Of a stretch of DNA of 64,000 bases, positions 23,742-55,124 are shown piece after piece (the stretch's first letter is position 1; every line of letters starts with the position of its first letter). Source of the stretch: Dehalococcoidia bacterium (GTDB lineage: Bacteria > Chloroflexota > Dehalococcoidia > Dehalococcoidales > RBG-16-60-22); NCBI GenBank assembly GCA_041300405.1, contig JBGLNK010000001.1, forward strand, positions 130,269-194,268. Reading direction: 5' to 3'. The notes under the pieces are model-generated. The model was not told where the DNA came from, made no database searches, and saw only the letters and a list, made by a program, of their open reading frames with translations. Position numbers and translations under genes: made by a program.

Positions 23742-23880
23742 GGCGTTGTAGTAAGACATAGCATGGAATATAACCAGGTTTATCATTGGGTTTAACTAAT
23801 TATGCCATCCCTTGAAAAAGGGATGGATGGGGAGGGATTTTTAAGTCCCTCAAATACGAAAAATAATACAGGAGAACAAC

Positions 23881-26977: not shown

Positions 26978-26990
26978 CGCGGGTGTTCGC

Positions 26991-27131: not shown

Positions 27132-27232
27132 ACGGAGATTATTATAACATAGTGTCATATATAAAGCCAAGCGTTTGACGCGCATTACTCTTACTGCCTA
27201 AAATAGCAGAGTTGGCTTTAAGGAGAATCAAT

Positions 27233-27706: not shown

Positions 27707-27937
27707 CTGGTGGGAATACTGCTGCGGTTCCGCAAATCCTTCGATGTAGCCGCGATTCATAAGGGTGGATATTTTATTCACCGCTTCGTCCCAGGGTAAG
27801 CCGGTACAACTTTCTATTTCTTCTATCATCGCCGCGCCGTGTACGTATAATGAAGGAGCCTGAAATCCTCTGTATTGGCGGAGGCTTCGAGTTTTGCCCG
27901 CGTCTCCGTTCGCCTGAGCAGATTTCTTTCTTGACAA
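27668..27937 (-). CDS. hypothetical small protein, possible winged-helix fragment; 3' end overlaps the HIT gene antisense
   Basis: 'MIEEIESCTGLPWDEAVNKISTLMNRGYIEGF' looks wHTH-like. The last about 13 codons lie inside the HIT gene. Confidence 0.3.
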   Translation of the reverse strand: MSRKKSAQANGDAGKTRSLRQYRGFQAPSLYVHGAAMIEEIESCTGLPWDEAVNKISTLMNRGYIEGFAEPQQYSHQLKLPRKRLVSIS

Positions 27938-28107
27938 CCTAATACTGTTTTATATAGAATATTAATGCAACTAAATGCAATAACAATAAGTTGCGATAAA
28001 TCCCTGGGGAACATTGATTGAAGTTTTAAACTGCTGCATGTAACGGTCGCTTGTTATGTCTTTTTAAAATGCTAGCGTATAATTAATTTGTAAGGAAGTA
28101 TAGTTAC

Positions 28108-28953: not shown

Positions 28954-28962
28954 AAGAAGAAG

Positions 28963-29760
28963 ATGGGGATGACAGAAGAGAGTTCGCATAAAATATCCAT
29001 CGATATCGAGAATGCAGTCGTCTCTTACCGTGAAGATGTTGCCCTGCGCGGTGTATCTTTAAAAGTAAGAAGCGGTGAATTTGTTGGCATTATCGGGCCC
29101 AATGGTGCGGGCAAAACTACGCTGCTTACCGTTGTGAATGGAATGGGAAGACTGGTTAACGGTCGCGTTAATGTGCTCGGTCACGCTTTGACTTCCGGCA
29201 ACGGTCACGCCCTAAGGAAGAAAGTTGGCTATGTAGCGCAGGCTCAGATAATCGACCCCCGGATGCCGATAAGCGTTCGTGAAGTAGCTATGATAGGACG
29301 CTGTGGTCGTCTTGGCTTGTTTCATAAGCCGGATAAGCGCGATTGGGAAATCGTGGATACAGCGCTGGATCTGGTAGGTATGACTCATCTTGCTCAACGG
29401 CCGATAGGGCATCTTTCCGGCGGCGAGCAGCAGCGGGTGGCTGTGGCGCGTTGCTTGGCCCAGGAACCGGAAATATTCCTGCTGGATGAACCGACCGCTT
29501 CACTGGATTGGAAGGCAAAGACTGATATACTGGAACTGGTGAAACGCATCCATGATGCCCGCAAATTAACTACCATGTTTGTTACCCATGATTTGAGTGC
29601 TTTACCCATTGCTTGCGACCGAGTAGTGCTGATGAAGGATGGATTCATCTATGATGAAGGCTCCTCCGCTGATTTATTGACTGATGATAAGCTGGCGCAG
29701 CTTTACGATATGCCCGTAGCCGAGGTGGCAAAAAGACGCGGGGAAGCTGCGTTGATTTAG
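28963..29760 (+). CDS. metal ABC transporter ATP-binding protein
   Basis: 'GPNGAGKTT', 'LSGGEQQR', 'FLLDEPT'. Confidence 0.9.
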   Translation: MGMTEESSHKISIDIENAVVSYREDVALRGVSLKVRSGEFVGIIGPNGAGKTTLLTVVNGMGRLVNGRVNVLGHALTSGNGHALRKKVGYVAQAQIIDPRMPISVREVAMIGRCGRLGLFHKPDKRDWEIVDTALDLVGMTHLAQRPIGHLSGGEQQRVAVARCLAQEPEIFLLDEPTASLDWKAKTDILELVKRIHDARKLTTMFVTHDLSALPIACDRVVLMKDGFIYDEGSSADLLTDDKLAQLYDMPVAEVAKRRGEAALI

Positions 29761-29779
29761 TACTGAAAGGTATCGGCTT

Positions 29780-30628
29780 ATGGATTTTTCAATTTTAACA
29801 TATCCGTTCATGCAGAACGCGCTTATATCCGGTCTCCTCGGCGGGATTGCCTGTGCTATTATCGGCGTCTTTGTCGTGCTGCTGCATATGCCTTTTATCG
29901 GCGTCTGTATGTCGCATGCCGCTTTCGCCGGGGCTTTGTTAGGGCTGTGGTTGGGTTTTAATCCCTTAATCGGGGCCTTCGCTTTCAGTTTGGGCGCGGC
30001 GGCTGTCGTCGGGCCGCTGGCCGACCGCGGCGAGCTCAACCCGGAGACTTCTGTCGGCATCATGTTTTCCCTGATGCTGGGGCTGGCTTTCCTTTTCATG
30101 GGATTGATGTCTGGCCCTAAGTCGCAGGCTTTAGAATTGTTATGGGGCAGCATTCTCACTAACACCCGGAGTGATATCGTTGTTTTAGCTGTAGTAGCTG
30201 TATTGGTGGTAGGTATTGTGATAATCTTCTTTAAAGAGATTCAGGCTGTTGTTTTTCAGCGTGACATGGCGCGTTCCGTCGGCATTCCGGCGGCAGTGAT
30301 ACTTTACGGTATCCTGTTTATGACTGGGGCTACGATAACGGCGTCATTCAGTTCCATTGGCGGTTTGCTCATTTTTAGCCTCATATTAAATCCGGCCGCC
30401 GCGGCCTACCAGCTTACTTATAACCTCAAGCGCATGTTTCTGATCGCGGCTGCTTTTGGCGTGCTATCGAGTTGGACAGGTTTATTATTTTCATATCTTT
30501 TTAACGTTCCCAGTGGCGCCACTATCGTCATCACTTCATCGCTCATTTTTATGCTGGCGGTGATCTTCTCTCCCAAGAGAAAGATGAAGCGCTGGCAGAA
30601 AAAATCGTTATTGGAAAAGGCATCATGA
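29780..30628 (+). CDS. metal ABC transporter permease (ZnuB-like)
   Basis: 282 aa, about 8 TM helices. 'FMQNALISGLLGGIACAIIGVFVVL' is a typical ZnuB start. Confidence 0.9.
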   Translation: MDFSILTYPFMQNALISGLLGGIACAIIGVFVVLLHMPFIGVCMSHAAFAGALLGLWLGFNPLIGAFAFSLGAAAVVGPLADRGELNPETSVGIMFSLMLGLAFLFMGLMSGPKSQALELLWGSILTNTRSDIVVLAVVAVLVVGIVIIFFKEIQAVVFQRDMARSVGIPAAVILYGILFMTGATITASFSSIGGLLIFSLILNPAAAAYQLTYNLKRMFLIAAAFGVLSSWTGLLFSYLFNVPSGATIVITSSLIFMLAVIFSPKRKMKRWQKKSLLEKAS

Positions 30629-31215
30629 GCAAAGAATATTTTAATTCAAGGGCTACCGACTGGGATGAAAAATCCACGGAACAAGATAAATCTCGGCTGG
30701 AAGCGATGGCGGCCCGCCTTGACATAAAAACCGGCGCGTCAGTGCTTGACGTCGGTACAGGAACCGGGGTATTTATCCCTTACTTATTAAACAAAATTGG
30801 GCGTGAAGGCAGTATCGTTTGTCTTGACTACGCGGAAGAAATGCTCAAGATAGCGTATGCCAAGGGATTCCAGGGTAATATCAGTTATATCTGTGAGGAC
30901 ATTGAGAACATCCGCCTGCCGGAAAAATCTTTTGACGCGGTTGTTTGTTATTCCGTTTTTCCCCATTTTAATGATAAGCAGAAAGCCTTGAGGAAGATTA
31001 GTCACCTCCTCAAGGGAAACAGGAAGATATTCATCTGTCATACATCGAGCCGTCAGGCTATTAACGATATTCACCGTACCTTGCCGGAAGTCTGCAATCA
31101 TCTGTTACCTAGAAACGAGGAAATGCGCCGGATGTTGATGGGGGCTGGATTTAAAGACATTAGCATTGCCGATGGTAAAGATGATTATCTGGTAAGCGCA
31201 AGGAAGCCCGGTTAA
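30625..31215 (+). CDS. class I SAM-dependent methyltransferase
   Basis: 'VLDVGTGTGVF' motif I. ATGA overlap with the permease stop. Confidence 0.85.
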   Translation: MSKEYFNSRATDWDEKSTEQDKSRLEAMAARLDIKTGASVLDVGTGTGVFIPYLLNKIGREGSIVCLDYAEEMLKIAYAKGFQGNISYICEDIENIRLPEKSFDAVVCYSVFPHFNDKQKALRKISHLLKGNRKIFICHTSSRQAINDIHRTLPEVCNHLLPRNEEMRRMLMGAGFKDISIADGKDDYLVSARKPG

Positions 31216-31359: not shown

Positions 31360-32772
31360 CTATTTGGAAGGCATCGGGAAACCCTGCGCCTTAAGAGCTT
31401 TTTGCAGGGCTTTGTAATCTACCTTTCTCGGTTCGATTTTCGCTTTTACGGCTAAAGCTGCCGCGGTGCCGGCTGCCTGCCCTGTCGCGACGCAGTGCGG
31501 GATAAGGTTGGCCATATTATTGGCGAACGGGTCCGACGAGAAACTGCGGCCGGCGGTCAGAAATCCGTCTATTTCCTTTGGAACCAGCGCCCGGTAAGGG
31601 AAACATACCGGGACGGGTGCTTTACCCGGCTGCGGAGGCCCCATGCGGTGGAACATTACCACGGTGTCTTCATGAATTTTGGGGGCCGAGAGTTCTTCTT
31701 TGGTGATAAAATATTCACCTGTCAAACGCCGCCCGCCGCGTGTGCCGAGCTGTGAGGCTGTATCCAGTATCCAGGCTTTTTCATAACCAGGTAGATTAGC
31801 CTTGACGAATTTTAGCCAGATGCGCATCGCTTTCCTCATGTTGATTTCAACCCAGGTCAGGTCATCGACATTGGAAGTGCTGCGGTTTTGAATCCAGTTG
31901 TTGACCCAGATAACATCGGGGCGGGGTGTCGCTTGCGGGACGAGATGATAAGGATTCATGATGCCGGGTTTTAATGCCGCCTGGAATTCCTCATTCCAGA
32001 TGCCGTCCATTTTCTCTTTTAATACCTTGTGTTGTTCGGGATTCTCCATGCGCCATGTGGTGAATTTCACGACATCGACGTTGGCTACGCGGAAAACCAG
32101 CGCCAGCGCCGAACTGCGGAGACCATCTCCCTTGGATTCGTCGAAAGCCGCGCCTGCGGATGGGAACAGGTCGCCGTCGCCGGTGGTATCGATTACTACT
32201 TTACCTAATATCGCTTGGCGGCCTGACTTGCTCTCGAACATAATGCCCTTGACCTTGTTCTTATCTACGATAGCGCGTGCAGCCCAGGAATGCAGCAGCA
32301 ATTTGACCCCTGCCTCTTCGATCAGGTCGTTCAATACGCACTTGAGCATTTCCTGGTCGAAGTAAACTGAATATCTCATTTCGCCGGCTATCATACCGAA
32401 GGTGCGCAGCGCCCAATCCTTGATAATTTGCGGATCTTTGGAGCCTATTTCCTCTTTTTTCGGGTGCATGCATCCGTCCAGTGGTTCGCACCTGTCTACC
32501 CATTCCTGACAAACGCCCAGTAATTTCCAGGGCTCGATTCCTGCGAACACCTGTGGCACCATTAATACCTGTCCGCCGGTAGCCATACCGCCCAGGTGGC
32601 CGTATCTTTCTACCAGTATTGTTTTAGCTCCGCTCCGGGCTGCCGATAAAGCGGCGCCTATACCCCCGGGGCCGCCCCCTACCACTACTACATCGGCTTC
32701 ATGGTACACTCTTACATCCTGCGCTGATTCCTGGATTGTCCTTACTCCCATTATTAACATCTCCTTCTGCAT
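31360..32772 (-). CDS. FAD-dependent oxidoreductase (FAD_oxidored/PF12831-like); start possibly Met8 at 32751
   Basis: 'DVVVVGGGPGGIGAALSAARSGAKTILVERYGHLGGMATGG'. Confidence 0.85.
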   Translation of the reverse strand: MQKEMLIMGVRTIQESAQDVRVYHEADVVVVGGGPGGIGAALSAARSGAKTILVERYGHLGGMATGGQVLMVPQVFAGIEPWKLLGVCQEWVDRCEPLDGCMHPKKEEIGSKDPQIIKDWALRTFGMIAGEMRYSVYFDQEMLKCVLNDLIEEAGVKLLLHSWAARAIVDKNKVKGIMFESKSGRQAILGKVVIDTTGDGDLFPSAGAAFDESKGDGLRSSALALVFRVANVDVVKFTTWRMENPEQHKVLKEKMDGIWNEEFQAALKPGIMNPYHLVPQATPRPDVIWVNNWIQNRSTSNVDDLTWVEINMRKAMRIWLKFVKANLPGYEKAWILDTASQLGTRGGRRLTGEYFITKEELSAPKIHEDTVVMFHRMGPPQPGKAPVPVCFPYRALVPKEIDGFLTAGRSFSSDPFANNMANLIPHCVATGQAAGTAAALAVKAKIEPRKVDYKALQKALKAQGFPMPSK

Positions 32773-33084
32773 TTTTTGTGCAGGAAATATTTATGTGGGT
32801 ATTATATCCTATATATAGCTCTTTTCTCAACTAAAAATGAAACGGTTTTTTAAAATTTGTCCTCAAGCAGGTTGCCGCAGACGCCAAAGCAAAATTGGAA
32901 ACTGCCGGCGCCGCTGTCAAGCTCATCTCGGGAACCTTTTCTGGCGGACACTCAGCAATGATCCCGGAAATTGTCAAAAGTATTATGAACGATACTGAAT
33001 TTCCGGTACGCTTGGAAGATGTCAGAGAAGTAGTCAAGGCGCAAGAAGAAATATGCCTGCAGATTGAAGAAGCAAGGAAAGTAA

Positions 33085-35214
33085 ATGAACTTGAAAGGGT
33101 TTCTTAAATTACTGAGCTCTAAAAGTGAGTTCTTGCTATTAGCCGTCATAATACTGCTTGCCTTCATCTTAAGAATGCTTTGGCTCAACACATCGATTGA
33201 AGGCGATGAAGGCTATTTTGCCTACACAGCTTGGCTCTGGGATCAAGGGAAAATATTATATGTTGATATTTTTGCTGAAAAAGGTCCCTTGCTTTATCTG
33301 TTGCATTTGCTGCCGATTCATTTCTTTGGCAATAGTATTATTCCTATCAGGATAGAGAATAATATCCTGTTCCTGGTTTCTATATTTGTTTTATACCTAA
33401 TTGCCAGGGATTGGAGTGGCAAAAAGGCCGGCTTAATTGCTGCTTTATTTTATAGTTTATTCATGAATGCCCCGTTTTATGGCGCCCACCAGGCAATGGC
33501 TGAGTCATTCTCAATACCTTTTGTTATATTTTCTGTGTATATTGGAAATAGGTATTTGAAAAACGGCAACAGAATCTTGTTGCTGATCGCGGCTATATTT
33601 ATGTCTGCCGCTTTATTAATCAGGCAGAATCAAGGTATAGGAATATTATTGCTTGTGATTATAATTGCCATCGCTAGATACCGATTGTATAAAGAAAACC
33701 ATCAAACAAAATGGTCTTTTGCAGGCCATACAACTGCTGACTTGTTAATTCTAACTGTGGGTATCATTCTCCCGATTTCAGCATTCCTTGTTTATTTTTG
33801 GAGCCATGGTGCAATCAGCGAGTTGGTAAAACAGACTGTTCTAAATTTCCTGCCTGGAAGTGCGTATTTCGCGAAAGCTAATGTTAATTATGGTATCAAG
33901 TTTCTGGACGTTGCTCAAGGATTACCATTATGGTTATTTGCCTTTTTAGGTCTCATAGCATGTATCTTGAAGCAAAAAAACTATAGATGGAGGGCTATTA
34001 TACCCTTTTCTTGGTTTCTTTTATTTTTAATGGTGGCCGGTATCCCACCCAATTACGGCCATCATTTCTCTATAGTGATCGCACCGGCGGCTATTTGTGT
34101 CGGTATTAGTCTGGGGTTGGTGTTAGATAATATAAAAAGTAAATCTATTACGTCTTTGTTTTCTGAATACGAAAAAAATATTACAAATATATTCCTTATT
34201 ATTTTACTGTTATTCTCATTCATTCCCGCGATATTCTTCTCCGTCAAACAATACCCAAACTCAAACATAAACTGGGAATTCGTATCTTGGGTTTGTACGG
34301 GAAATGTACAGATAGTAGATTACAAACAGCAGTTGGAAATTGCAGAATATTTGAATAAAAATACAATAGAAGAAGATAACATCCTTATTCATGCCTGGGG
34401 AGGGGCAACTATCTACTGGCTGACCGGACATGAAGCACCAAGTAAACACACCTTTTTACGTCCACCCTTCACTCCGAAGGTTCCATTGCAGGAGGTTGAT
34501 AGGGTTTTAAAAATGATTAGTGAACGAAACTTTAAATCAATACTTTTGTTCGCACAAAATATTACTAAACTTGATTCTACAGATCCTATTGTCAAACTTA
34601 CATTAAATAAATACTACTATATTCAAAATATCGGAAATGCTTATGTATATGAAAAATATAGTCTGGAAGGGGAGTATGCATACTATAGCTTTATTGAGGA
34701 ATATCCTGATGCAATAAAGGAATATGACTTACCAGACGGAAACAAAGGAAATACGATTGAAGCTTTTAAAAACGAGGCTATTTTAATACCGGTAGTTTCA
34801 TCTCTAACCGTTAATAGTGATAACAGGCCCACGCTTTTTCAACACCCTCTCGCTCCTCAGGGAACATTTACTCGAAATTCGTATGTTAACTATACTAGTG
34901 TTATTGTACCTGAAAAAGCAAGCATTAAGTTCGCTATATCTACAACTCCTTCTACGTGGACAAATGCTGGAGATGGTGTACAATTTAAGATTATTATAAA
35001 AGACAACGAAATAAATAGTGAAGTATTTTCAAAATATATTGATCCAAAACATAATATTGAAGACAGAAAATGGCATGAATACGAAATAGATCTGGCAAAT
35101 TACGTTAACAAAACGATAGATATAGCTTTCGTAACAAACCCTGGCCTGAACAATAACTCATCGAGTGATTGGGCGCATTGGGGCAGTCCGACAATAGTTG
35201 TTTCTGTGAAATAA
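33085..35214 (+). CDS. GT-C fold membrane glycosyltransferase (family 39/83-like, PMT/ArnT type) with C-terminal extracytoplasmic domain
   Basis: First loop 'IEGDEGYFAYTAWLW' carries the DE motif of GT39/GT83. About 11 TM helices, then a soluble tail of about 300 aa. Confidence 0.7.
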   Translation: MNLKGFLKLLSSKSEFLLLAVIILLAFILRMLWLNTSIEGDEGYFAYTAWLWDQGKILYVDIFAEKGPLLYLLHLLPIHFFGNSIIPIRIENNILFLVSIFVLYLIARDWSGKKAGLIAALFYSLFMNAPFYGAHQAMAESFSIPFVIFSVYIGNRYLKNGNRILLLIAAIFMSAALLIRQNQGIGILLLVIIIAIARYRLYKENHQTKWSFAGHTTADLLILTVGIILPISAFLVYFWSHGAISELVKQTVLNFLPGSAYFAKANVNYGIKFLDVAQGLPLWLFAFLGLIACILKQKNYRWRAIIPFSWFLLFLMVAGIPPNYGHHFSIVIAPAAICVGISLGLVLDNIKSKSITSLFSEYEKNITNIFLIILLLFSFIPAIFFSVKQYPNSNINWEFVSWVCTGNVQIVDYKQQLEIAEYLNKNTIEEDNILIHAWGGATIYWLTGHEAPSKHTFLRPPFTPKVPLQEVDRVLKMISERNFKSILLFAQNITKLDSTDPIVKLTLNKYYYIQNIGNAYVYEKYSLEGEYAYYSFIEEYPDAIKEYDLPDGNKGNTIEAFKNEAILIPVVSSLTVNSDNRPTLFQHPLAPQGTFTRNSYVNYTSVIVPEKASIKFAISTTPSTWTNAGDGVQFKIIIKDNEINSEVFSKYIDPKHNIEDRKWHEYEIDLANYVNKTIDIAFVTNPGLNNNSSSDWAHWGSPTIVVSVK

Positions 35215-35220
35215 TAAGCT

Positions 35221-36036
35221 ATGAAAAATACAGATATAACCCAAAAAGAAGTAGAAAAGCACCTGGGTCAAAAACTGGCAGCAGATTCCAGTACTGAGAG
35301 TTTTAGAGAAGCATATGATGAGTTTCATACCTATCTTTTACATCAAGGTATAAGAGGCCAGAATCCCTCCGGATTCCTTTATAAAGAGAAATTATCAATC
35401 CTGGATAAAATACTGATGAAAAACATCGGGAGAAGTAAAAAGGTACTTGATATTGGTTGTGGCGATGGTACTTTAGCAATAGCTTGTGCCGGTACAGGGA
35501 ATGAAGTCGTAGGCCTGGATGTATCTGAAGTCGCTATAGCGCAAGCGAAATCAAATAAAAGTGAAAGTATTAAAGCAAGTTTCCTTCTCGCTGATGCTAG
35601 AGACATGCAGGGGTTTCAAAACGAATCGTTCGATATAGCAGTTAGTAAAGACGTTATCGAACATTTACCCGAAAAAGACTTGAAGCCTCATCTGATGGAA
35701 GTATATCGTGTTTTAAAACAGAATGGACGCTATCTCCTCTTTACCCCCTCGAAAGTTCTTGGAGATCTATCACTGGGGGCTCACCTTAAAATGTATGGCT
35801 TACAAGACCTGATTCCAACTCTGAGACAGATTAATTTTACAGTCAGTGTGATTTGCCCTTTCCCCGAGGTATTGGGGGTTTCTGGTAAGATAACTAACAG
35901 ATGGTTAGTTGAAAGCATTGTCAGATATGAAAAAATGCTGGGGAGAATCGGAGTTGGTGGTTGTCTGGCGAAGTTGGGCAATCTGAGCTATGGGATTATT
36001 CCAATGGTACTATTAAGTGCCGTTAAAAAACCTTGA
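35221..36036 (+). CDS. class I SAM-dependent methyltransferase
   Basis: 'VLDIGCGDGTLA' motif I, 'DIAVSKDVIEHL'. Confidence 0.85.
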   Translation: MKNTDITQKEVEKHLGQKLAADSSTESFREAYDEFHTYLLHQGIRGQNPSGFLYKEKLSILDKILMKNIGRSKKVLDIGCGDGTLAIACAGTGNEVVGLDVSEVAIAQAKSNKSESIKASFLLADARDMQGFQNESFDIAVSKDVIEHLPEKDLKPHLMEVYRVLKQNGRYLLFTPSKVLGDLSLGAHLKMYGLQDLIPTLRQINFTVSVICPFPEVLGVSGKITNRWLVESIVRYEKMLGRIGVGGCLAKLGNLSYGIIPMVLLSAVKKP

Positions 36037-36044
36037 TATCCCGG

Positions 36045-37259
36045 TTATTTATTCCGGTAAACGTCCTCCAGCACTGCCAGCAATTTTTCCCAGTTGAAAT
36101 TTGTCCTTATCATCTTCCTGGCATTGGCGCCTATTTCGTTCCTTAAACGCTCATCTTTCAACAGGCGGATGATGCCGTCGGCAAAGCCTTGGGTATCTCC
36201 CGGCTCTACAAGAATACCGGATTTTCCATCCTCGATGTATTCTGCTATTTGTCCCACTTTGTTAGCGATAACACATATGCCAAGGTTCATCATTTCCACC
36301 AGCTTGCCCGGGCATTTAGTGCGGTTCAACAGATTATCATCGAAGGGATATATCGCGACATCAGAAACCCTCAAGTATTCATGTACTTTATCCGCGTCTA
36401 TCCACCCGGTAAAGGTAACCATATCGGGAATTCCCATCTCTTTAACCAGGTTTAATAGGTCGTTCTCTTCCCCGAATTTGCCCTTTCCCACCACCAGCAG
36501 TCTTGTATCAGGTACTTCCTTTTGTAAAATTTGTAATATATCCGCGACCTGTTTTACCCCAAATTCAAAGAACCTGGTATAGAGCAGTACCACCGGCTTG
36601 CCGGAAATGCTCAGTTTTTCTTTCAATATTGCAGCCTGGGATTCCGTTACAGGCGGAGGCTCTAATCCGTATGTACCATTCGGCAAATAGTAAATCCTGG
36701 ACGATGGAACTCCCATTTCTGATATTAAAGACTGCAATGTCCTGCTGGCTGCTGTTACCGCATCGACATGCTTTGGCACCCAATTGTTCTGAAACCGGTA
36801 GAATTCAAGCTGATAGCGGGGATAAAGACGCCGGGAGAGAAATTGGGTATAAAAACCTCCCTCGCCTTCCCAATCATCTGTATCGAGGATAATAACAGCT
36901 TTAAAAAGGCCAAGACGGCGGAGCATGAGTAAAAACATACCGCTGAGGCCGCCGTATCCCGTTGGTTTGAACAAATGCACAACATCCGGGTGGGCAGAGA
37001 TAACTTTCTTTACCAGCCTCCATGCTGATAGCAGCTGTTTTAAAGGTGAAGAGACAGATGGAATCTTGATATTAATAATGTTAACACTATCTGCCCTGTA
37101 TTCCCGGCCTGATTCTGAAAGATTATCATAAGGAGGAAGGATAATACTAACCTCGTGTCCACGGGAATATAGCCACCTGGCAATCGGCATTATTCTAACA
37201 TGGACGGTACCCTGAGGGTAAAAAGCAAAAGGAGCGATTAAAACGAATCTAAACATCAA
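36045..37259 (-). CDS. glycosyltransferase (GT-B, family 4/1-like)
   Basis: 404 aa. 'LLVVGKGKFGEE...VTFTGWI...VAIYPF' and 'IANKVGQIAEYIEDGKSGILV'. Confidence 0.8.
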   Translation of the reverse strand: MMFRFVLIAPFAFYPQGTVHVRIMPIARWLYSRGHEVSIILPPYDNLSESGREYRADSVNIINIKIPSVSSPLKQLLSAWRLVKKVISAHPDVVHLFKPTGYGGLSGMFLLMLRRLGLFKAVIILDTDDWEGEGGFYTQFLSRRLYPRYQLEFYRFQNNWVPKHVDAVTAASRTLQSLISEMGVPSSRIYYLPNGTYGLEPPPVTESQAAILKEKLSISGKPVVLLYTRFFEFGVKQVADILQILQKEVPDTRLLVVGKGKFGEENDLLNLVKEMGIPDMVTFTGWIDADKVHEYLRVSDVAIYPFDDNLLNRTKCPGKLVEMMNLGICVIANKVGQIAEYIEDGKSGILVEPGDTQGFADGIIRLLKDERLRNEIGANARKMIRTNFNWEKLLAVLEDVYRNK

Positions 37260-37362
37260 CGTAATTTATTTAGTATCAACTTACTCAATAAAAATATTCA
37301 AATCATGGAAGGTAGCGTAATTAGCGCCAAAAGTATAATATATGGTATTATTATAACACATT

Positions 37363-38880
37363 ATGGCACAATTATCTTTAATTGAATCTAGCGTTACAAA
37401 TCATGACGGGGTTGCCAGAAGCAGCCTGCTGCTTATTGTCGCCTTATTTGTAACCAACCTACTTAATTACGCGTTTAATGTAGGGGCTGGATGGCTATTG
37501 AGTGTCGAAGATTATGGTATATTCGGTGTTTCCATGACTATATTCCTTGTGCTCAGCATTTTTATTCAATCTGGGTTTCCTCAGGCTGCTGCAAAATTCC
37601 TGGCTGAACCTGGTGCTGACCGGGCAAAGATACTCAGGACTTCATTTTTAGGTAACCTGGTAATAGGATTGATTATTGGTACAATCTTCTGGCTGATTAT
37701 ATCACTCTCAGGTGGTCTTGGAACTGGCTATGCTTATATCGTTCCGGTAATAATCATTACCGTTGTTTTATCATCTCCTGGAAGAGTTGCAGTTTCTGCG
37801 TTGCAGGGGCTTTTTAACTTTAAGCAAGTAGCCTTGTTGAATATCTTGCAGGCGGCATTAAGACTAATATTTGGCATTATTCTGGTCTTATTGGGGTATA
37901 GAGCACTTGGGGCAATATCCGGTTTTTCTTTAGGGATTATTGTATCTACCCTGATATCAATTGTTGCCGTCAGGAATATTCGCTTTTGGAAAAAAAGCTA
38001 TATTTGCCCGGAAATATTAAAATACGCTGTGCCTGCATTGTTTGGTACTGTTGGCTTGAATTTACTGATGACCGTAGATCTACTGGCTATAAAATTCCTG
38101 ATGACATCTGACCAGATGGTTGGATATTACCAGTCCGCTATAACCCTTGCCCGGCTGCCTGTATGGATAACCCTGGGGATGATGTCAGCCGTATTTTCAT
38201 TTATTTCCAGGCATATCAAGGATGATAATTCAAAAAAGTATATTTCTATATCCCTTGATTATTCACTCCTTTTCCTTATCCCGATTTCATTACTATTCAT
38301 AATAATACCCGGACCGTTGCTGACCCTCTTTTTCCCCGTAAATTATTTGCCGGGCAGCAGTGTTTTAGCTATTGTTTCAGCAGGCATGGGATTTCTTGTA
38401 GTTATTAATGTGCTGGGGCAAAGCCTCCAGGCCATGGGAAATCCACGCCTGCCAGCTGTTATACTTGCCGGCGTTGCAATTGTGCAGATACTTCTATTGT
38501 GGCTCCTGATACCTGAATATGGTATCGAGGGAGCAGCTTCCGCCACTACGGTTTCTTGCTTCCTTTGTTTTATTCTGATGATATTAGCTGCGAGGCGCTA
38601 TGGAATAAAAGTTAAATGCAGCATAAGACTATGTGTATGTTATGCCTTAATGGGAATTATACTTTACTTCATGCCTCATGCAGACAGAGGATTGACTGTG
38701 TTTTCTGTGCTTGTAGCCGGAATTGTATATTTGTTAAGCCTTTTTGTATTGGGAGTGCTGACCCGTGAACACGTAGAGATTATAATATCCGGAATGTTCA
38801 AAAAGGAAAACAGAGTTACTTTAGCTATACTTAAACTCATAGACCGCGGAAATATATTTAATAAAAAAACCGATGACTAA
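37363..38880 (+). CDS. oligosaccharide/polysaccharide flippase (MOP/Wzx-like)
   Basis: 505 aa, about 14 TM helices. 'NLLNYAFNVGAGWLLSVEDYG'. Confidence 0.8.
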   Translation: MAQLSLIESSVTNHDGVARSSLLLIVALFVTNLLNYAFNVGAGWLLSVEDYGIFGVSMTIFLVLSIFIQSGFPQAAAKFLAEPGADRAKILRTSFLGNLVIGLIIGTIFWLIISLSGGLGTGYAYIVPVIIITVVLSSPGRVAVSALQGLFNFKQVALLNILQAALRLIFGIILVLLGYRALGAISGFSLGIIVSTLISIVAVRNIRFWKKSYICPEILKYAVPALFGTVGLNLLMTVDLLAIKFLMTSDQMVGYYQSAITLARLPVWITLGMMSAVFSFISRHIKDDNSKKYISISLDYSLLFLIPISLLFIIIPGPLLTLFFPVNYLPGSSVLAIVSAGMGFLVVINVLGQSLQAMGNPRLPAVILAGVAIVQILLLWLLIPEYGIEGAASATTVSCFLCFILMILAARRYGIKVKCSIRLCVCYALMGIILYFMPHADRGLTVFSVLVAGIVYLLSLFVLGVLTREHVEIIISGMFKKENRVTLAILKLIDRGNIFNKKTDD

Positions 38881-40969
38881 AGAAAAACGTTGGTTGCCAT
38901 ATCTTATATTTTCCTTCCTTTCATTTGTGGTTTTAGGTCCGCTCTTGTTGCCCGAATATATATTGACTTTGGATATGCCTTTTGGTCCTGCTGAATCGTA
39001 TAGCAATTACTTTTTTGGGTTTCCAGAATGGTTGGGGAGTATAGCCAGTGCCCCTTTAAGCTTAATATTTCCCATTTTGTCCAGAATTGTTCCGGTATGG
39101 ATTCTACAAAAAATAATCTTGTTAGCTATATTATTTCTTTCAGGCCTGGGGGCATACCGTCTTATCCCCGCCAAAAGTGCCGCAGCATATTATGCCGGCA
39201 TCTTGTATATGATCAATCCTTTCGTTTATGTGCGGATGATGGTGGGGCAGTGGGGAATACTGGTTTCATATGCATTATTGCCGCATGCAATCAAAGCTTT
39301 TATAGAAACCCTGGAACAAGGTAATTGGAAAGCTTTATTAAAGCTGGCTGTTCTGTCTGTCCTGGTAGGTGTAGTGCAAATTCACGGGTTTTTCTTGTTG
39401 CTGCTTTCTTTGTTTATTGTTTTCCTGGTAAAAGCAAGCGCCTGCGGGAACCGTCGGGAAATATTTAAGAGAACTATAGCCGGGTTTGGTGCAATCATGC
39501 TGCTAAACACGTACTGGCTATTACCGGCGTTTACCAGCAGCGGCACTATTTTGGAAGGAATAACTGAAGCTGATATTCTTTTTTTTACTCCCAAGGCAAG
39601 TTCTAACCTCGGTACGGCGATAGATATTGCCACCATGCATGGGTTCTGGAGAGGAGGTATAGATTATCCGGATTATACTTCTCTTTGGAGACTTGCATTT
39701 GCAATTATAATATTCCTGGCTGCATTTGGCTTTACGACGAATATTACTGATAAAAAACGGAAATGGACGATACTTTCTTTCGGAATATTGGGAATTACTG
39801 GTTACTTATTGGCGCTTGGAGCGAGCAGCCGGCTTACACAACCCGTATTTACTTGGTTATGGGAAAACGTACCTTATTTTAACGGTTTCAGAGATACGCA
39901 CAGGTTTGTAATGTTACTTGCTCTGTCGTATGCATATTTGGGCGGTCTCGGCATATTGGAGTTGGTTAAATACGGCCATCATCAGAAGCAGTTCTTATTA
40001 AAGTGGACCATGGTAGCTTTAGTCGGATTATCGATTCTCTCTCCGCTGTTATCTTCGTTTTCGATATTTGGCCTGAATGGTAAAGTAAAAGCGACAAATT
40101 ACCCGCCGGAATGGTATGAAGTAAAGCATTACCTGGATAAACAGGAAGGTGATTATAATGTGCTTTTCTTACCCTGGCATGGATGGTTTGATATTAAGTG
40201 GATTAATAACGAGGATAAACGTCTGGGAAACCCGGCCCGGCACTTCTTTGGCAAATCGATAATATGTGGTGATAACATTGAGATTGGTGACACATACAGT
40301 CAAAACTCGAATCCGGTAAGTAAATACGTGGAATTCTTGTTGCGTAATCAGGAACAGATAGAAAACAAGGGTGAGCTATTGGCGCCGCTCAATATCAAAT
40401 ATATTATTCTTGCACATGAAGCTGATTATGAGAACTATCGATTTTTATTCCACCAGGATGATATTAAAGTTAGCTTGGCTAACAACTTGATAACGCTTTT
40501 CGAGAATAATAATGTCACCGGTATGGTCTATGCGGTAGATAATGTTGTCTATATAGAAAGTTTAAATGAATATCTTGAGCTTAGTAAAACGCAAAATGTG
40601 ATGCAAAATTTATATATCCTGGGAACGGGAGAAGATAGTATTACCGGAATTAATCAGGAAACACTCAAATGTGAGAAAACATGCCCTGTTGAATATTACG
40701 TAAGCGGCAGCTATTTGAAATACACCGTTTTTACAATAAATCAGGAATATGTGGGAAATCACTGGAGATACAATGGAGATAGCGCAGCATATGCGAACCT
40801 TGGTATTATGCCTGTTTTCAAATCATCTGCAAACGGAGGAAAAATCGTAAATAGCAGATTTTACAAAGTCTACTTACCGGGCTACCTCATATCGGCTTTA
40901 ACATTAGGTGTCGTTTTATTTGGTGTTTATTATAAAAGACGCGTTTATCCGGGTGAACATAGAAAATAA
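38873..40969 (+). CDS. large polytopic membrane protein with C-terminal soluble domain; candidate second GT-C glycosyl/oligosaccharyl transferase
   Basis: 698 aa. Asp-containing first loop 'LTLDMPFGP'. About 11 TM helices, then 'VLFLPWHGWFD...NIKYIILAHE'. The architecture resembles YfhO/AftD-type GT-C enzymes, but no motif is decisive. Confidence 0.45.
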   Translation: MTKEKRWLPYLIFSFLSFVVLGPLLLPEYILTLDMPFGPAESYSNYFFGFPEWLGSIASAPLSLIFPILSRIVPVWILQKIILLAILFLSGLGAYRLIPAKSAAAYYAGILYMINPFVYVRMMVGQWGILVSYALLPHAIKAFIETLEQGNWKALLKLAVLSVLVGVVQIHGFFLLLLSLFIVFLVKASACGNRREIFKRTIAGFGAIMLLNTYWLLPAFTSSGTILEGITEADILFFTPKASSNLGTAIDIATMHGFWRGGIDYPDYTSLWRLAFAIIIFLAAFGFTTNITDKKRKWTILSFGILGITGYLLALGASSRLTQPVFTWLWENVPYFNGFRDTHRFVMLLALSYAYLGGLGILELVKYGHHQKQFLLKWTMVALVGLSILSPLLSSFSIFGLNGKVKATNYPPEWYEVKHYLDKQEGDYNVLFLPWHGWFDIKWINNEDKRLGNPARHFFGKSIICGDNIEIGDTYSQNSNPVSKYVEFLLRNQEQIENKGELLAPLNIKYIILAHEADYENYRFLFHQDDIKVSLANNLITLFENNNVTGMVYAVDNVVYIESLNEYLELSKTQNVMQNLYILGTGEDSITGINQETLKCEKTCPVEYYVSGSYLKYTVFTINQEYVGNHWRYNGDSAAYANLGIMPVFKSSANGGKIVNSRFYKVYLPGYLISALTLGVVLFGVYYKRRVYPGEHRK

Positions 40970-44322: not shown

Positions 44323-45084
44323 TTACTTTTTCTTTTCGCCTTTTCCTGCATCGGCGCCGGGCTTGGCCGCAGCACCGGGTTTAGCTGCAGCCTCACCGCC
44401 AGGTTTGGCTCCTGCCGCAGCTTCGGCACCGGGCTTGGCTGCCCCTTCAGCACCGGCAGCAGCTTCGCCTTCAGCAGCTTCGCCTTCGGCAGCAGCAGCG
44501 ATCGGCTTCTCTTCTTCGAGCTTCATGGTGACTTCAGTAACCTTGACTACCAACTGGTTAGGGTCGGCATGAACGGTAATTGCCGGGTCAAGGGGAATAT
44601 CTTTAACGTAAATACCCTGTTCAAGTTCAGTTAGAATACTTATGTCTACTTCAATAAACGGCGGGACTTTTTCAGGTAGACATTCAATTTTAAGTTCCAT
44701 GATACCCTTGGAGACCATGCGGCCTTTGCCTCTCATGGCAGGGGCTTCGCCAACCAGGATGATAGGGATGTCCATCTGCATCTTTTCATCTTTATTTACC
44801 TGGTAAAAATCAACGTGTAAAAGCTGGCGGCTCAGGATATCTTTTTGAATTTCACGTACAAATACCCGCTTGGGTTCTCTTTCTCCTTCAACACTAAGGC
44901 TCAGGAGACGGGTCGTACCGGCTTGGGCGAGTATTTTGGTAAGCTCGGTAGTGTCGCACTGTAAAGCTTCTGATTTTAAATCATGCCCGAAGAGATGTGC
45001 CGGGGTAATGCCCTGGCGGCGTAATACCTTGGTTTTCTTCCCGATCACATTTCTCCTGGCAGCGGTTAAATTCATTTCTGGCAT
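44323..45084 (-). CDS. rplY: 50S ribosomal protein L25/general stress protein Ctc with long Ala/Glu/Gly/Lys/Pro-rich tail
   Basis: 'RRNVIGKKTKVLRRQGITPAHLFG...' is an L25 N-domain, followed by a Ctc C-domain and a 64-aa low-complexity tail. AAGGGGAA RBS before the ATG at 45084. Confidence 0.85.
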   Translation of the reverse strand: MPEMNLTAARRNVIGKKTKVLRRQGITPAHLFGHDLKSEALQCDTTELTKILAQAGTTRLLSLSVEGEREPKRVFVREIQKDILSRQLLHVDFYQVNKDEKMQMDIPIILVGEAPAMRGKGRMVSKGIMELKIECLPEKVPPFIEVDISILTELEQGIYVKDIPLDPAITVHADPNQLVVKVTEVTMKLEEEKPIAAAAEGEAAEGEAAAGAEGAAKPGAEAAAGAKPGGEAAAKPGAAAKPGADAGKGEKKK

Positions 45085-45206
45085 TTTATGTTCCCCTTTC
45101 CAACTTATCAATTTAAGCACATTTAGACGTAAAAATCAATTAAGAAGTGCAATGGAGTTTGTAAAATCAATATATTAGTACAAATATTCGGTTGTTTGAA
45201 TTAACA

Positions 45207-53012: not shown

Positions 53013-53025
53013 GAGATTATAGAAA

Positions 53026-54104: not shown

Positions 54105-55124
54105 TTGTCAAAAGTTAGTATCGTGAACAAATTTGATGATATGCCCTTGCCTGTAATAGCTTATGGAGGTTATAATGGGAGAACTAAAACTGAAAGCGCT
54201 ATCAAAATGATAAAATATCCCATGAATGTGAATAATATGAAGATAATGGCGGGTATGCCGGCTTATAATGAGAGCAAATATATAGGCAGTTTGGTGCTTA
54301 GTACCAGGCAATATGTAAATGAAGTCGTCGTTGTTGATGACGGCAGCGCTGACGAAACTGCAAAAATAGCTCAATTTGCGGGAGCCGATGTAATCAGGCA
54401 TCCGCAAAATAAGGGGTACGGAGCTGCAATTCTCAGCATATTCAATGAAGCAAGAAAAAGAGACCCGGATGTACTTATCATACTGGATGCTGACGCACAG
54501 CATAATCCGCAGGAAATCCCCAATATCATCAAACCGGTACTAGAAGGCTATGACGTCGTTATCGGTACCAGAGAGAAACAGGCAGAGAAAATACCTTTTT
54601 ACCGCCGTATTGGACAGAAGGTAATAGCCGGCTCGGTAAATGTACTTTCTGATAAGCACTTATCTGATTCCGAGTGCGGTTTCAGGGCATTTTCACGTAA
54701 AGCTATAGCCGAGCTTAATTTAAAGGAAAGCGGTATGGCTATATCCGCCGAGACTGTAGCCGAGGCTGCCCGGCAAAATTTAAAAATCATCCAGGTTCCT
54801 GTGTCTGTCATTTACGGTAAAGACGGGTCGACATTAAACCCGGTGTCCCACGGGTTGGGTGTTATGACACGTATACTGGTTATGATTTCTGAACAAAGAC
54901 CTTTGTTATTCTTCGGTTTGGCTGGAATAATCCTGATGTTGTTAGGACTGGCGGCCGGATTTTTTACGCTCACCCTCTACACTCAGAGTAATGTGATATC
55001 CGTCGCCTGGGCGCTTATCGCTATTTTCCTGGTAATCCTGGGGGCAATGAGTTTTTTCAATGGAATAACTCTACATGCCATGAATAATGTAATTCACCAG
55101 GCTTTAACAAAATATAAACGATGA
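54105..55124 (+). CDS. GT2 polyprenyl-phosphate glycosyltransferase (Dpm1/GtrB-like) with C-terminal TM helices; start uncertain (ATG at 54207 or 54237 likely)
   Basis: 'MPAYNESKYIG', 'VVVVDDGSADET', 'ILDADAQH' (DxD). Two C-terminal hydrophobic helices. Confidence 0.85.
   Translation: MSKVSIVNKFDDMPLPVIAYGGYNGRTKTESAIKMIKYPMNVNNMKIMAGMPAYNESKYIGSLVLSTRQYVNEVVVVDDGSADETAKIAQFAGADVIRHPQNKGYGAAILSIFNEARKRDPDVLIILDADAQHNPQEIPNIIKPVLEGYDVVIGTREKQAEKIPFYRRIGQKVIAGSVNVLSDKHLSDSECGFRAFSRKAIAELNLKESGMAISAETVAEAARQNLKIIQVPVSVIYGKDGSTLNPVSHGLGVMTRILVMISEQRPLLFFGLAGIILMLLGLAAGFFTLTLYTQSNVISVAWALIAIFLVILGAMSFFNGITLHAMNNVIHQALTKYKR

Follow-up and report, generated by a model that had tools for sequence, protein, structure and literature searches.

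Within a 64-kb stretch of DNA from a Dehalococcoidales bacterium (hereafter the window), five open reading frames were confirmed at 33085-40969, exactly at the coordinates of a first-pass annotation. These genes, a small frame at their upstream end and a glycosyltransferase gene that lies outside the island are listed below.

32895..33107, + strand: small open reading frame, 70 aa, sharing 23 nt with the start of the 709-aa gene (ORF list)
33085..35214, + strand: predicted PMT_2-family (ArnT/PMT-like) GT-C enzyme, 709 aa (Pfam, AlphaFold2, Foldseek)
35221..36036, + strand: predicted class I SAM methyltransferase, 271 aa (Pfam)
36045..37259, - strand: predicted GT4 (GT-B fold, retaining), 404 aa (Pfam)
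37363..38880, + strand: predicted Wzx/MOP-family flippase, 505 aa (Pfam, hydropathy)
38873..40969, + strand: predicted AftD-N-terminal/MmpA-like GT-C enzyme, 698 aa (NCBIfam, AlphaFold2, Foldseek)
54105..55124, + strand, outside the island: putative GT2 polyprenyl-phosphate sugar synthase (AglJ/PpgS/ArnC/GtrB type), a possible donor supplier

The small frame is considered to be a putative gene only; a 78-aa gene was also called at its position in an independent assembly (L086). The last 8 nt of the flippase gene are also the first 8 nt of the 698-aa gene, and the ATG at 38873 was favoured for the latter over a 674-aa gene call; its homologues align from residue 2. The island is foreign in composition, variable and syntenically distinct. 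Its GC content of 39.7% (0.397) compared with 49.2% (0.492) in the remainder of the window confirms the AT-richness that was reported earlier, and the GC3 of its genes is 0.34-0.47 versus 0.56-0.60 in the flanking genes. It is located just beyond a block that shows synteny to a relative without the island, and in the nearest relative the syntenic block extends from GluRS to a methyltransferase without either glycan island. The other glycan island of the window, a canonical polysaccharide cluster 15-20 kb upstream of the island that is described here, has a Wzy_C-family gene at 13360-14871. In its low GC content, its variability and its position past the syntenic block, as well as in its Wzx, GT4 and sugar-modifying enzyme, the island resembles the Wzx/Wzy polysaccharide or O-antigen clusters. 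Unlike them, it has no Wzy_C polymerase or ligase, chain-length regulator or priming transferase, and two GT-C enzymes would replace the outside machinery. The lack of a priming phosphoglycosyltransferase had already been remarked upon for the island, and a Pfam scan found none of these families among 40 ORFs of the window (all those of at least 300 aa except 60893-61813 and 62738-63997, plus frame-overlapping shadow ORFs).

The 709-aa protein scored 43.1 bits against PMT_2 (PF13231; cutoff 26.1), while neither the GT39 PMT models PF02366 and PF16192 nor the Emb models were matched, nor was any NCBIfam model. Besides about 12 TM helices, the protein comprises an alpha/beta domain in the periplasm (approximately residues 410-530) and, at its C-terminus, a CBM-like beta-sandwich (approximately residues 540-709). 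The acidic pair of the loop-1 motif GDEGY, to which the first-pass annotation had drawn attention, is well conserved among 15 homologues, with E42 invariant and D41 kept in at least 90%. Its AlphaFold2 model (pLDDT 79) matched EmbA/B/C, AglB, STT3 and ArnT in Foldseek (E 1e-7 to 1e-9), with Pmt4 also among the matches, and it superposes on ArnT (TM 0.57 of the target) and likewise on Emb, AglB and Pmt4. Based on this model, the protein is predicted to have a GT-C fold of a PMT_2/ArnT/Emb-like type. The Foldseek matches of the C-terminus to CBMs were weak (E about 1e-3) and typical of a generic jelly-roll; three copies of this jelly-roll are present in P0122, and a 30%-identical paralogue matches CBM_11. 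Among the enzymes of the PMT_2 superfamily, i.e., ArnT, EmbA-C and bacterial Pmt (GT83, GT53 and GT39), with which it shares the loop-1 D-E, the Emb proteins are also similar to it in their C-terminal carbohydrate-binding-like beta-sandwich, whereas it differs from Pmt and Emb in the absent model matches and in having no MIR domains. Moreover, its partner is a GT4, while that of the Arn, Ppm/Pmt and Gtr systems is a GT2 carrier-sugar synthase, and unlike ArnT, Emb and Pmt, its own subfamily is very small, with only 15 full-length relatives detectable in 5.8 billion proteins. The sole taxon-labelled relative is archaeal (Bathyarchaeia), and three metagenome contigs share its gene content.

For the 698-aa protein, the sole NCBIfam match was to the MmpA model (5.6e-55; 186.9 bits vs a cutoff of 210), which was also matched by all 36 of the aligned relatives, and GT-C_AftD was likewise found below its cutoff (5e-5; 21.8 vs 26 bits). 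By sequence, it is a member of a large uncharacterised family homologous to MmpA, with 1342 cluster representatives at E<=1e-30; archaea (Methanoperedens, Haloferax and the Bathy-, Micr- and Aenigmarchaeota) have many members of this family. The AlphaFold2 model (pLDDT 88.2, pTM 0.88) had the AftD structure 6W98 as its best Foldseek match (E 3.8e-10, TM 0.56), followed by the STT3/PglB oligosaccharyltransferases, which supports the GT-C fold that had been suspected. The architecture described earlier was also recovered: there are 11 TM helices, a large alpha/beta plus beta domain on the outer side (roughly residues 404-660) and a loop-1 D34 that is Asp in 31/36 homologues and Ser in three. A C-terminal TM anchor is present as well. 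Other conserved residues are D234, R340-D341, K344, P434-W435-H436 and D467/E470. AftD, a GT-C arabinofuranosyltransferase of which MmpA (Rv0226c/NCgl2761) is a short paralogue, has the same 11 N-terminal TM helices and soluble GT-C domain; its TM3 has been described as proline-kinked, and in our model the invariant N115-P116 breaks TM3 into a pair of short helices. Additionally, the spacing of the conserved D/K residues resembles that of K39/D41/E251/K361/D474, which are essential in AftD (bioRxiv 10.1101/2019.12.22.885152). In the mycobacterial locus, too, a methyltransferase (MtrP) is found together with a putative glycosyltransferase (Cgp_3166). However, apart from scoring below both curated cutoffs, the 698-aa protein lacks a CBM array and a C-terminal 5-TM/ACP-binding bundle, and neither TmaT nor MmpL is among its neighbours. 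Unlike AftD and MmpA, it pairs with a Wzx flippase, and its host has neither mycolates nor arabinogalactan. For MmpA itself, the characterised relative, only a genetic phenotype in trehalose mycolate transport is available (PMC8698533).

Pfam supported the three functions that had been placed between the large proteins. The 271-aa protein (Methyltransf_25/11/31, 6e-22) has no NCBIfam equivalog at cutoff and no TM segment by hydropathy, and is presumed to be a cytoplasmic sugar O-methyltransferase. The 404-aa protein (Glycos_transf_1, 1.2e-28, plus Glyco_trans_4_4) is predicted to be a cytoplasmic GT4 and is a conserved partner of the 709-aa GT-C, while the 505-aa protein (Polysacc_synt, 3.9e-19; 13 hydrophobic segments) is a predicted Wzx/MOP flippase for lipid-linked sugars.

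A comparison of about 90 loci, 85 with a homologue of the 698-aa protein and five more that were fetched for homologues of the 709-aa protein, indicates that the island combines two modules, each conserved independently of the other. In module A, the 709-aa GT-C always has a GT4 neighbour and mostly some methyltransferase as well; GT4 orthologues with 45-54% identity adjoin it in L004, L005, L087 and L088, which are all four of the other such loci with enough flank. In module B, a flippase for lipid-linked sugars (Wzx, or GtrB+GtrA) often accompanies the 698-aa GT-C: a homologue of the window's flippase lies less than 1 kb away in 17/83 loci, which span Chloroflexota and archaea. In ten of these, it is encoded on the same strand and is 27-37% identical at a coverage above 90%. 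Methyltransferases recur beside homologues of both GT-Cs but are non-orthologous (at most 29-41% identity over the core). Modules A and B with orthologous parts were never found together in the other compared loci, so each may belong to a pathway of its own. Loci of the 698-aa homologue usually encode another polytopic GT-C-like protein as well, often with CBMs; this was seen in at least eight loci besides the island. The same kind of design recurs in L092 (GT2s, PMT_2, two methyltransferases and the 698-aa homologue), where it adjoins IS110 and integrases. The neighbours of the 698-aa homologues include dTDP-sugar/UDP-sugar genes, GT2/GT4, pyruvyl transferase, phosphodiesterase and CBM proteins, and Wzy_C is not among their top neighbour families.

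The three-component systems (GtrB-like GT2, GtrA/GtcA flippase and GT-C; Gtr*, YfhO and CsbB partners), in which a polyprenyl-phosphate sugar is made inside and flipped before a GT-C decorates an outside polymer, are also similar. L093 has exactly this arrangement, with the 698-aa homologue following a GtrB-like GT2 and a GtrA flippase, and the window has a GtrB/AglJ-like GT2 at 54105. The Dpm1-like character that was ascribed to this GT2 is consistent with its NCBIfam matches, all of which are below cutoff (AglJ, the best, 3.3e-44; PpgS 3.3e-36; ArnC 1.4e-20), and with two hydrophobic, apparently membrane-spanning C-terminal segments in its translation, both of which fit a polyprenyl-phosphate sugar synthase. 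However, the gene lies 13 kb from the island in a separate transcription unit, the window's flippase is a 13-TM Wzx rather than a 4-TM GtrA, and the island adds two GT-Cs, a GT4 and a methyltransferase.

Based on what was observed (the genes present, their folds, the conserved acids in the loops, the pairing within each module and the distinct composition and synteny of the island), we consider it slightly more probable than an even chance that the island is a surface-glycan assembly locus built from two modules, with its priming enzyme encoded elsewhere and the neighbouring substrate-binding (SBP) lipoproteins present by chance. The build, flip and transfer-outside logic is supported by the predicted domains and GT-C folds, which agrees with the earlier proposal that these genes suffice to elongate, methylate, flip and transfer a lipid-linked glycan. 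In the order of steps, donors and acceptor that we infer, the GT4 would build or extend a lipid-linked or membrane-anchored saccharide in the cytoplasm and the methyltransferase would O-methylate it. The Wzx would carry a sugar or oligosaccharide on polyprenyl phosphate across to the outer face, and the 54105 GT2 could supply mono-sugar donors. The ArnT/Emb-like 709-aa GT-C would work outside the membrane, its CBM-like domain gripping the glycan acceptor, while the translationally coupled AftD/MmpA-like 698-aa GT-C would transfer the flipped sugar onto the growing surface glycan, replacing a Wzy polymerase or ligase. The acceptor is more likely to be a glycan (polysaccharide, lipoglycan or protein-bound glycan), and the product would be a cell-surface polysaccharide, a lipoglycan or a glycan chain on envelope proteins; the island may also participate in protein glycosylation. 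Mycobacterial AG/LAM assembly also uses several GT-Cs, and both it and the Agl pathway of Haloferax volcanii are comparable, so the statement that two GT-Cs with a methyltransferase match no described system was too strong.

The latter pathway has two outer-face lipid-linked-sugar transferases (AglB and AglS), the methyltransferase AglP, the Wzx-like AglR and DolP-sugar-forming GT2s (AglJ/AglD) (PMC3871713). It is conceivable, albeit unlikely, that the island is a horizontally acquired pathway of this archaeal style, with a lipid-linked glycan attached to or extended on S-layer or surface proteins, in which the 698-aa protein would be an AglB-independent oligosaccharyltransferase or AglS-like (compared by role only), the Wzx would correspond to AglR and the methyltransferase to AglP. 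Dehalococcoides-type cells, which have no peptidoglycan but a protein surface layer, would suit such a pathway, as would the archaeal abundance of the 698-aa family, the STT3/PglB and AglB structural matches of the two GT-Cs and AglJ as the best match of the 54105 GT2. Moreover, Hfx. volcanii has a second, still unassigned oligosaccharyltransferase activity (PMC3871713). In the Bathyarchaeia-assigned contig L004 and in the unassigned metagenome contigs L005 and L088, which share its conserved gene pair, module A adjoins conserved secreted proteins of ~700 aa and ~390 aa with a signal peptide, a C-terminal anchor and many NxS/T sites, which is a pointer towards protein glycosylation. However, these proteins have no homologue in the window, in which protein acceptors are putative and no STT3/AglB homologue was found; neither sequence similarity to STT3/AglB nor a WWDYG-type motif was identified, and the best structural match of the 698-aa protein, AftD, extends glycans. 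Those loci that encode pyruvyl transferase, phosphodiesterase and CBM proteins also resemble polysaccharide loci, and the host is bacterial.

The first-pass annotation had favoured an O-glycosylation system beside its substrates, i.e., a Pmt-like system in which the GT-Cs transfer sugars from polyprenyl-phosphate to Thr in the linkers of neighbouring SBPs, for which the actinobacterial Ppm1/Pmt is the model. The lipoprotein with a 40-residue T/P/A linker that it had pointed out downstream of the island (41341) is an SBP_bac_5 with a lipobox, and T/P/A make up 88% of this linker. Another SBP of this kind is encoded at 50230 (80-88% in both linkers), and an SBP_bac_5 whose linker is Thr-rich lies 3 kb from the 698-aa homologue in L093. 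The PMT_2 match with its loop-1 D-E, the Pmt4 match and the 54105 GT2 also fit, and probable O-glycosylation of a Chloroflexota surface filament was observed (PMC12488501). Nevertheless, we regard this as quite improbable. An SBP homologue was found within 10 kb in only 2/85 loci of the 698-aa homologues and in 0/5 of the further 709-aa loci, and with two SBP_5 genes in 64 kb the likelihood of chance adjacency is high. Between the island and the SBP gene lie 371 bp, and the GC content changes sharply; the window's ZnuA lipoprotein has no such linker. Only the broad PMT_2 model is matched, the jelly-roll is like that of Emb/AftD, which act on glycan acceptors, and the homologous loci are clusters of sugar-nucleotide, GT, pyruvyl-transferase and CBM-protein genes. 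Furthermore, Pmt requires neither a GT4, a Wzx nor a second GT-C, and the usual bacterial type of O-oligosaccharyltransferase (Wzy_C) sits in the other island.

Least probable is that the 698-aa protein is a non-enzymatic, MmpA-like scaffold or lipid-delivery factor aiding the export of a GT4-made glycolipid: its strong homology to the MmpA model, the Ser at D34 in three relatives and the trehalose-lipid transport defect of MmpA mutants, with no catalytic domain recognised (PMC8698533), are outweighed by the GT-C fold with its AftD-like spacing of conserved acidic and basic residues, the repeated coupling of the family to lipid-linked-sugar flippases and polyprenyl-P-sugar synthases, a host without mycolates and a recent preprint in which MmpA is a probable glycosyltransferase (bioRxiv 10.64898/2026.07.31.741767).

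The five closely packed ORFs of the island at 33085-40969 were assigned with Pfam and NCBIfam as follows:

709-aa protein, + strand, PMT_2 at 43.1 bits, above the gathering score
271-aa protein, + strand, class I SAM methyltransferase
404-aa protein, minus strand, GT4
505-aa protein, + strand, Wzx/Polysacc_synt
698-aa protein, + strand, GT-C_AftD below threshold; strong match to NCBIfam MmpA, below its cutoff

With a GC content of 39.7%, the island falls below the remainder of the window (49.2%), and its GC3 values are 0.34-0.47 as opposed to 0.56-0.60 in the flanking genes. The first-pass annotation had described these ORFs, their domains and composition, the linker of the neighbouring SBP_bac_5 lipoprotein and a GT2 at 54105, and all of these particulars were borne out. 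The 505-aa protein qualifies as a Wzx/MOP flippase by its matches to PF01943 (69.6 bits) and PF13440 (61 bits) and the 13 hydrophobic segments found in the hydropathy analysis. In the Pfam search, neither a Wzy polymerase nor a priming phosphoglycosyltransferase was found within the island; the absence of the latter, which had been reported at first pass, holds for all 40 window ORFs scanned (every ORF of at least 300 aa except 60893-61813, 62738-63997 and frame-overlapping shadow ORFs), none of which matched a PGT family. From the gene content, the folds, the conserved residues and the gene pairings, we consider with moderate confidence that the island serves the assembly of a surface glycan. 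The Dehalococcoidia include bacteria that matter for bioremediation and the subsurface; to our knowledge, a normal cell wall is lacking in their cultured members, and hardly anything is known of their surface chemistry. The island provides a concrete, testable gene set for a surface glycan.

The first-pass annotation had proposed a GT-C fold for the 698-aa protein, and structure prediction confirmed it. The AlphaFold2 (AF2) model, which was built with 36 homologues (pLDDT 88.2, pTM 0.88), showed 11 TM helices followed by a mixed outside domain and, at the C-terminus, one further TM helix, in agreement with the hydropathy scan. In the Foldseek comparison with the PDB, AftD (6W98) ranked first (E 3.8e-10, 648 aligned columns), followed by STT3, PglB, DPY19, AftA and ArnT. 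Residue D34 in loop 1 is Asp in 31 of the 36 family members, and D234, R340-D341, K344, P434-W435-H436 and D467/E470 are also kept. The essential residues of AftD are K39, D41, E251, K361 and D474 (bioRxiv 10.1101/2019.12.22.885152); the spacing of D34, D234, K344 and D467/E470, compared along the sequences, recalls them. The GT-C_AftD model (PF11847) gave 21.8 bits for the 698-aa protein, below the gathering threshold of 26, and most of its homologues carry a precomputed PF11847 or PF20176 match. Unlike AftD, the 698-aa protein lacks the three CBMs and the C-terminal 5-TM bundle that binds the acyl carrier protein, and has instead a single outside domain followed by one TM helix. The NCBIfam MmpA model (NF053599) matched residues 14-522 with 186.9 bits (E 5.6e-55) against a curated equivalog cutoff of 210, and it also matched all 36 aligned relatives (best E 2.5e-63). 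By these scores, the protein is an MmpA homologue and not an equivalog. In contrast to the tmaT-mtrP-mmpA locus of mycolate producers, no acyltransferase-3 or MmpL was found in the window, the host of which belongs to the Dehalococcoidales. The public gene call of this protein is 674 aa long and starts at 38945, 24 codons downstream of an ATG at 38873 that overlaps the 3' end of the 505-aa (Wzx) gene, including its stop, by 8 nt. This upstream ATG is the better start: alignments with the homologues begin at residue 2, and the model is highly confident for the first TM helix (residues 8-25).

The 709-aa protein has approximately 12 TM helices (AF2 secondary structure, with which the hydropathy scan agrees) and a large extracytoplasmic domain. 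Its AF2 model (pLDDT 79) matched EmbA/B/C, AglB, STT3, ArnT, Pmt4 and ALG9 in the PDB at Foldseek E values of 1e-9 to 1e-4. The PMT-type loop-1 Asp-Glu motif is present as G-D41-E42-G-Y and is kept in the subfamily, E42 being invariant and D41 at least 90% conserved in the family. The PF13231 PMT_2 match covers residues 68-204 and scores 43.1 bits against a gathering threshold of 26.1; it was the only match at E<=0.01, none being obtained with PF02366 PMT, PF16192 PMT_4TMC or NCBIfam. The last ~170 residues form a beta-sandwich that matches carbohydrate-binding modules in Foldseek (E about 1e-3). This C-terminal module occurs three times in the homologue P0122, and a 30%-identical paralogue has a weak CBM_11 match. 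In the model, the CBM-like domain suggests that the acceptor of this GT-C may be a glycan. Only 15 full-length relatives of the 709-aa protein were detectable, of which one is assigned to Bathyarchaeia; a 928-aa CBM protein of Haloferax was ruled out as a relative by profile comparison. Sequence searches of the PDB chains with both GT-Cs and with the 698-aa family profile returned no match, so that known enzymes are linked to both proteins by fold comparison only. This also applies to the STT3 family, for which neither GT-C had a Pfam match.

Approximately 90 related loci were fetched and searched with the proteins of the window. In all of the loci in which a 709-aa homologue had enough flank (L004, L005, L087 and L088), it adjoins a GT4 that is 45-54% identical to that of the window. 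A methyltransferase is usually found near the 709-aa homologues, and it is not orthologous to the one in the island (at most 29% identity). Of 83 loci, 17 have a Wzx homologue less than 1 kb from the 698-aa homologue; in ten, this neighbour is a clear orthologue on the same strand, and such cases occur in both Chloroflexota and Methanoperedens. Homologues of the 709-aa and 698-aa proteins were found together in none of the other fetched loci, and the complete five-gene block was not found elsewhere, being repeated only at the family level in L002 (Wzx, GT2, methyltransferase, GT4, methyltransferase, GT4, a 1550-aa DUF6311 protein with CBMs and the 698-aa homologue) and L092, in which GT2s, a PMT_2 protein, two methyltransferases and the 698-aa homologue form one operon. 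Since the pairings are conserved separately, the island is best described as two juxtaposed modules, one comprising the 709-aa GT-C, the methyltransferase and the GT4, and the other the Wzx and the 698-aa GT-C. In at least eight further loci, the 698-aa homologue has another polytopic GT-C-like protein as a companion. Other neighbours include genes for dTDP-rhamnose, amino sugars and UDP-sugars, GT2/GT4, pyruvyl transferase, phosphodiesterases and CBM proteins, and neither Wzy_C nor a priming transferase was among the common neighbour families. We also observed that the 698-aa homologues of Haloferax namakaokahaiae (L077, 780-11791) and a Chloroflexi contig (L019, 5-12037) have a common set of companions, i.e., Wzx, a protein of the type I phosphodiesterase/sulfatase superfamily and a large CBM-bearing membrane protein, to which L019 adds a polysaccharide pyruvyl transferase and an FrhB-like protein.

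The donors, the order of the steps and the acceptor of the pathway are those that we infer from this context. On the cytoplasmic side, the GT4 would extend a lipid-linked or membrane-anchored saccharide, which the methyltransferase would then modify inside the cell, and the Wzx would flip the carrier-linked sugar. The 698-aa GT-C, which appears to be translationally coupled to the Wzx, would move the flipped sugar onto the surface glycan, thus holding the place of Wzy or the ligase in classical loci. The 709-aa GT-C would add further residues while its CBM-like domain holds the acceptor; these residues would probably come from polyprenyl-P-sugars, made for example by the GT2 at 54105. This GT2 resembles AglJ, PpgS and ArnC, and as its C-terminus ends in two hydrophobic, apparently membrane-spanning segments, it is of the polyprenyl-phosphate sugar synthase type. 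With a flippase and a carrier-sugar synthase as neighbours, the putative donor of both GT-Cs is a polyprenyl-phosphate-linked sugar.

The ingredients and logic of the island are familiar, and by defining features it belongs to none of the closest described systems. The 698-aa protein is closest to AftD/MmpA and the 709-aa protein to ArnT/Emb/Pmt, while for the island as a whole the closest are the three-component Gtr type, the Haloferax volcanii Agl pathway and the Wzx/Wzy polysaccharide loci. A Gtr-type system needs an adjacent GtrB-like GT2, a GtrA and a GT-C, whereas in the window the GT2 lies 13 kb from the island and a GtrA was not detected. The classical arrangement is complete in the homologous locus L093 (1259-11223), where a GtrB-like GT2 and a GtrA flippase precede the 698-aa homologue and a GT87 GT-C is also present. 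In the case of the Wzx/Wzy pathway, the only Wzy_C protein of the window lies in a separate AT-rich island (GC 0.41), which is a classical Wzx/Wzy-type locus:

11124-19811, minus strand, second glycan island with the genes below
polysaccharide deacetylase
GT4
13360-14871, Wzy_C-family protein, which could equally be of the O-antigen-ligase or O-oligosaccharyltransferase type
second GT4
16175-17755, Wzx
292-aa polytopic membrane protein without a family match
NAD-dependent epimerase

Two outer-face transferases, a methyltransferase and a Wzx-like flippase occur together already in the Agl pathway (PMC3871713). An archaeal-style modification of glycoproteins by the island is consistent with the archaeal distribution, the fold similarity to STT3/AglB and the sequon-rich secreted proteins that adjoin the first module in a Bathyarchaeia contig and in two contigs of like gene content, and we regard it as unlikely. 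The loci in question, L004 (628-3938, assigned to Bathyarchaeia), L005 (2753-6327) and L088 (6148-9548), the last two being metagenome contigs without assignment, have in common a pair of secreted proteins. One is ~700 aa long and 39-41% identical between the loci; the other, of ~390-404 aa and 42-53% identity, has a signal peptide, is anchored by a C-terminal TM segment and contains numerous NxS/T sites. Both are candidates for surface glycoproteins and, in archaea, could serve as acceptors; the window contains no homologue of the pair. The 697/725-aa neighbours of the archaeal 709-aa homologues were tested as relatives of the 698-aa GT-C and proved to be unrelated secreted proteins.

Surface-glycan assembly also agrees better with the gene neighbourhoods than the Pmt-like O-glycosylation of the adjacent lipoproteins that the first-pass annotation had put forward, which we consider improbable. 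The gene directly downstream of the island does encode an SBP_bac_5 lipoprotein, in whose 40-residue linker T, P and A make up 88%, and a second SBP at 50230, 9 kb away, has a linker of the same kind; the ZnuA lipoprotein of the window has none. This claim found no support in the fetched loci: an SBP_bac_5 homologue was within 10 kb of the 698-aa homologue in only two of 85 loci, namely L070 (a weak match) and L093, and none was near a 709-aa homologue, so Thr-rich lipoproteins are not part of the conserved neighbourhood of the GT-Cs. In L093, the SBP_bac_5 protein with its Thr-rich linker, in the stretch 12345-16000, lies 3 kb downstream of the 698-aa homologue. Moreover, as the 64-kb window contains two such SBPs, one beside any given gene is unsurprising, and where such operons are this dense an island will probably adjoin one by chance. 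A gap of 371 bp and a step in GC content set the SBP gene apart from the island and speak for separate units. Additionally, the 709-aa protein is outside GT39 PMT by model membership, and its CBM-like domain is of the accessory kind found on glycan-extending GT-Cs such as Emb and AftD. Should the Thr-rich linkers receive their glycans en bloc, the Wzy_C-family protein at 13360-14871 would be an equal or better candidate; its family includes the bacterial O-oligosaccharyltransferases PglL and WsaB. Four genes for FAD-dependent (fumarate-reductase-like/FAD_oxidored) oxidoreductases (7277-8704, 31360-32772, 45251-47149 and 47682-49637) are interleaved with the two SBP_bac_5 peptide/nickel-type ABC transporter operons. 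The same mix is seen in L093, a related Dehalococcoidia-like contig with permeases that are 48-58% identical to those at 52062-53922 of the window.

That the 698-aa protein is an MmpA-like scaffold without catalysis is very improbable; the repeated coupling of the MmpA family to lipid-linked-sugar flippases in bacteria and archaea argues that MmpA is a glycosyltransferase. MmpA is an essential mycobacterial envelope protein whose mechanism is unexplained. We know of no description of a flippase-coupled MmpA-like GT-C or of the second GT-C that habitually accompanies it. When MmpA was named, no homologues were reported beyond the Corynebacterineae except AftD (PMC8698533), a restriction that is ruled out by the bacterial and archaeal distribution observed here. 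In the 90%-cluster database, the 698-aa protein had 323 matches, none above 50% identity save the window's own product; among 50%-cluster representatives, 1342 belong to its family at E<=1e-30, a number that rises to 6399 at E<=1e-3. Among species-representative genomes, it is found in Chloroflexota/Dehalococcoidia, CPR bacteria, some Actinomycetota and many archaea (Methanoperedens, Halobacteriota including Haloferax, Bathy-, Micr- and Aenigmarchaeota, Thermoproteota). A literature search on DUF6541 and on AftD-like enzymes in archaea or Chloroflexota found nothing. We tentatively raise the possibility that this AftD-N/MmpA-like GT-C family (>1300 50%-identity clusters) represents widespread, unrecognised flippase-coupled terminal transferases. 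If so, the family would take the place of Wzy, WaaL or STT3 wherever lipid-linked glycans are attached or polymerised on the surface of cells that have no murein sacculus, and the missing AglB-independent oligosaccharyltransferase of archaea could be among its members. The MmpA of mycobacteria would in that case represent a specialised offshoot, with a "lipid delivery" phenotype that reflects glycosyltransferase activity. The breadth of the family suggests that easier model systems are available for learning its function.

Regarding the genomic setting, Dehalococcoidales MAGs encode proteins that are 73-80% identical to the adjacent GluRS, and the host was assigned to this order from these relatives. 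The stretch at 22230-31215 (in order, GluRS, GlnRS, NfeD, radical SAM, HIT, ZnuA, ABC, ABC-3 and a 196-aa methyltransferase) is collinear with the closest relative found (L090/L091; GluRS 79% identical). Neither glycan island lies beside the shared block in this relative; both are therefore immediately outside the conserved core and bracket it. The gene for the 470-aa FAD oxidoreductase at 31360-32772, between the block and the first island, is also missing there. A mobile-element origin was considered, and no integrase, tRNA or repeat boundary was found at the island in the window. In L092, the GT2, PMT_2, methyltransferase, methyltransferase and GT-C island (11156-17777) is followed by an IS110 transposase, IS21-like genes and three tyrosine-recombinase genes, which suggests that glycan islands of this kind travel with mobile elements. 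A promoter/terminator scan returned 33 sites against 26.6 expected and was uninformative. Three further features were observed in the window:

32895-33107, + strand, 70-aa ORF with a GC content above that of the island, sharing 23 nt with the start of the 709-aa gene; it is possibly the remnant of a gene, and a 78-aa gene was called at the same position on the independent assembly contig L086
8575-10455, minus strand, 626-aa secreted protein with a signal peptide, adjoining the second glycan island; it has no Pfam match and a faint match to PelX (pectate-lyase-like beta-helix), and may be a surface or glycan-processing protein
44323-45120, minus strand, gene that reads, from its translation only, like ribosomal protein L25/CTC; the product has a tail of ~60 residues rich in Ala, Glu, Gly, Lys and Pro
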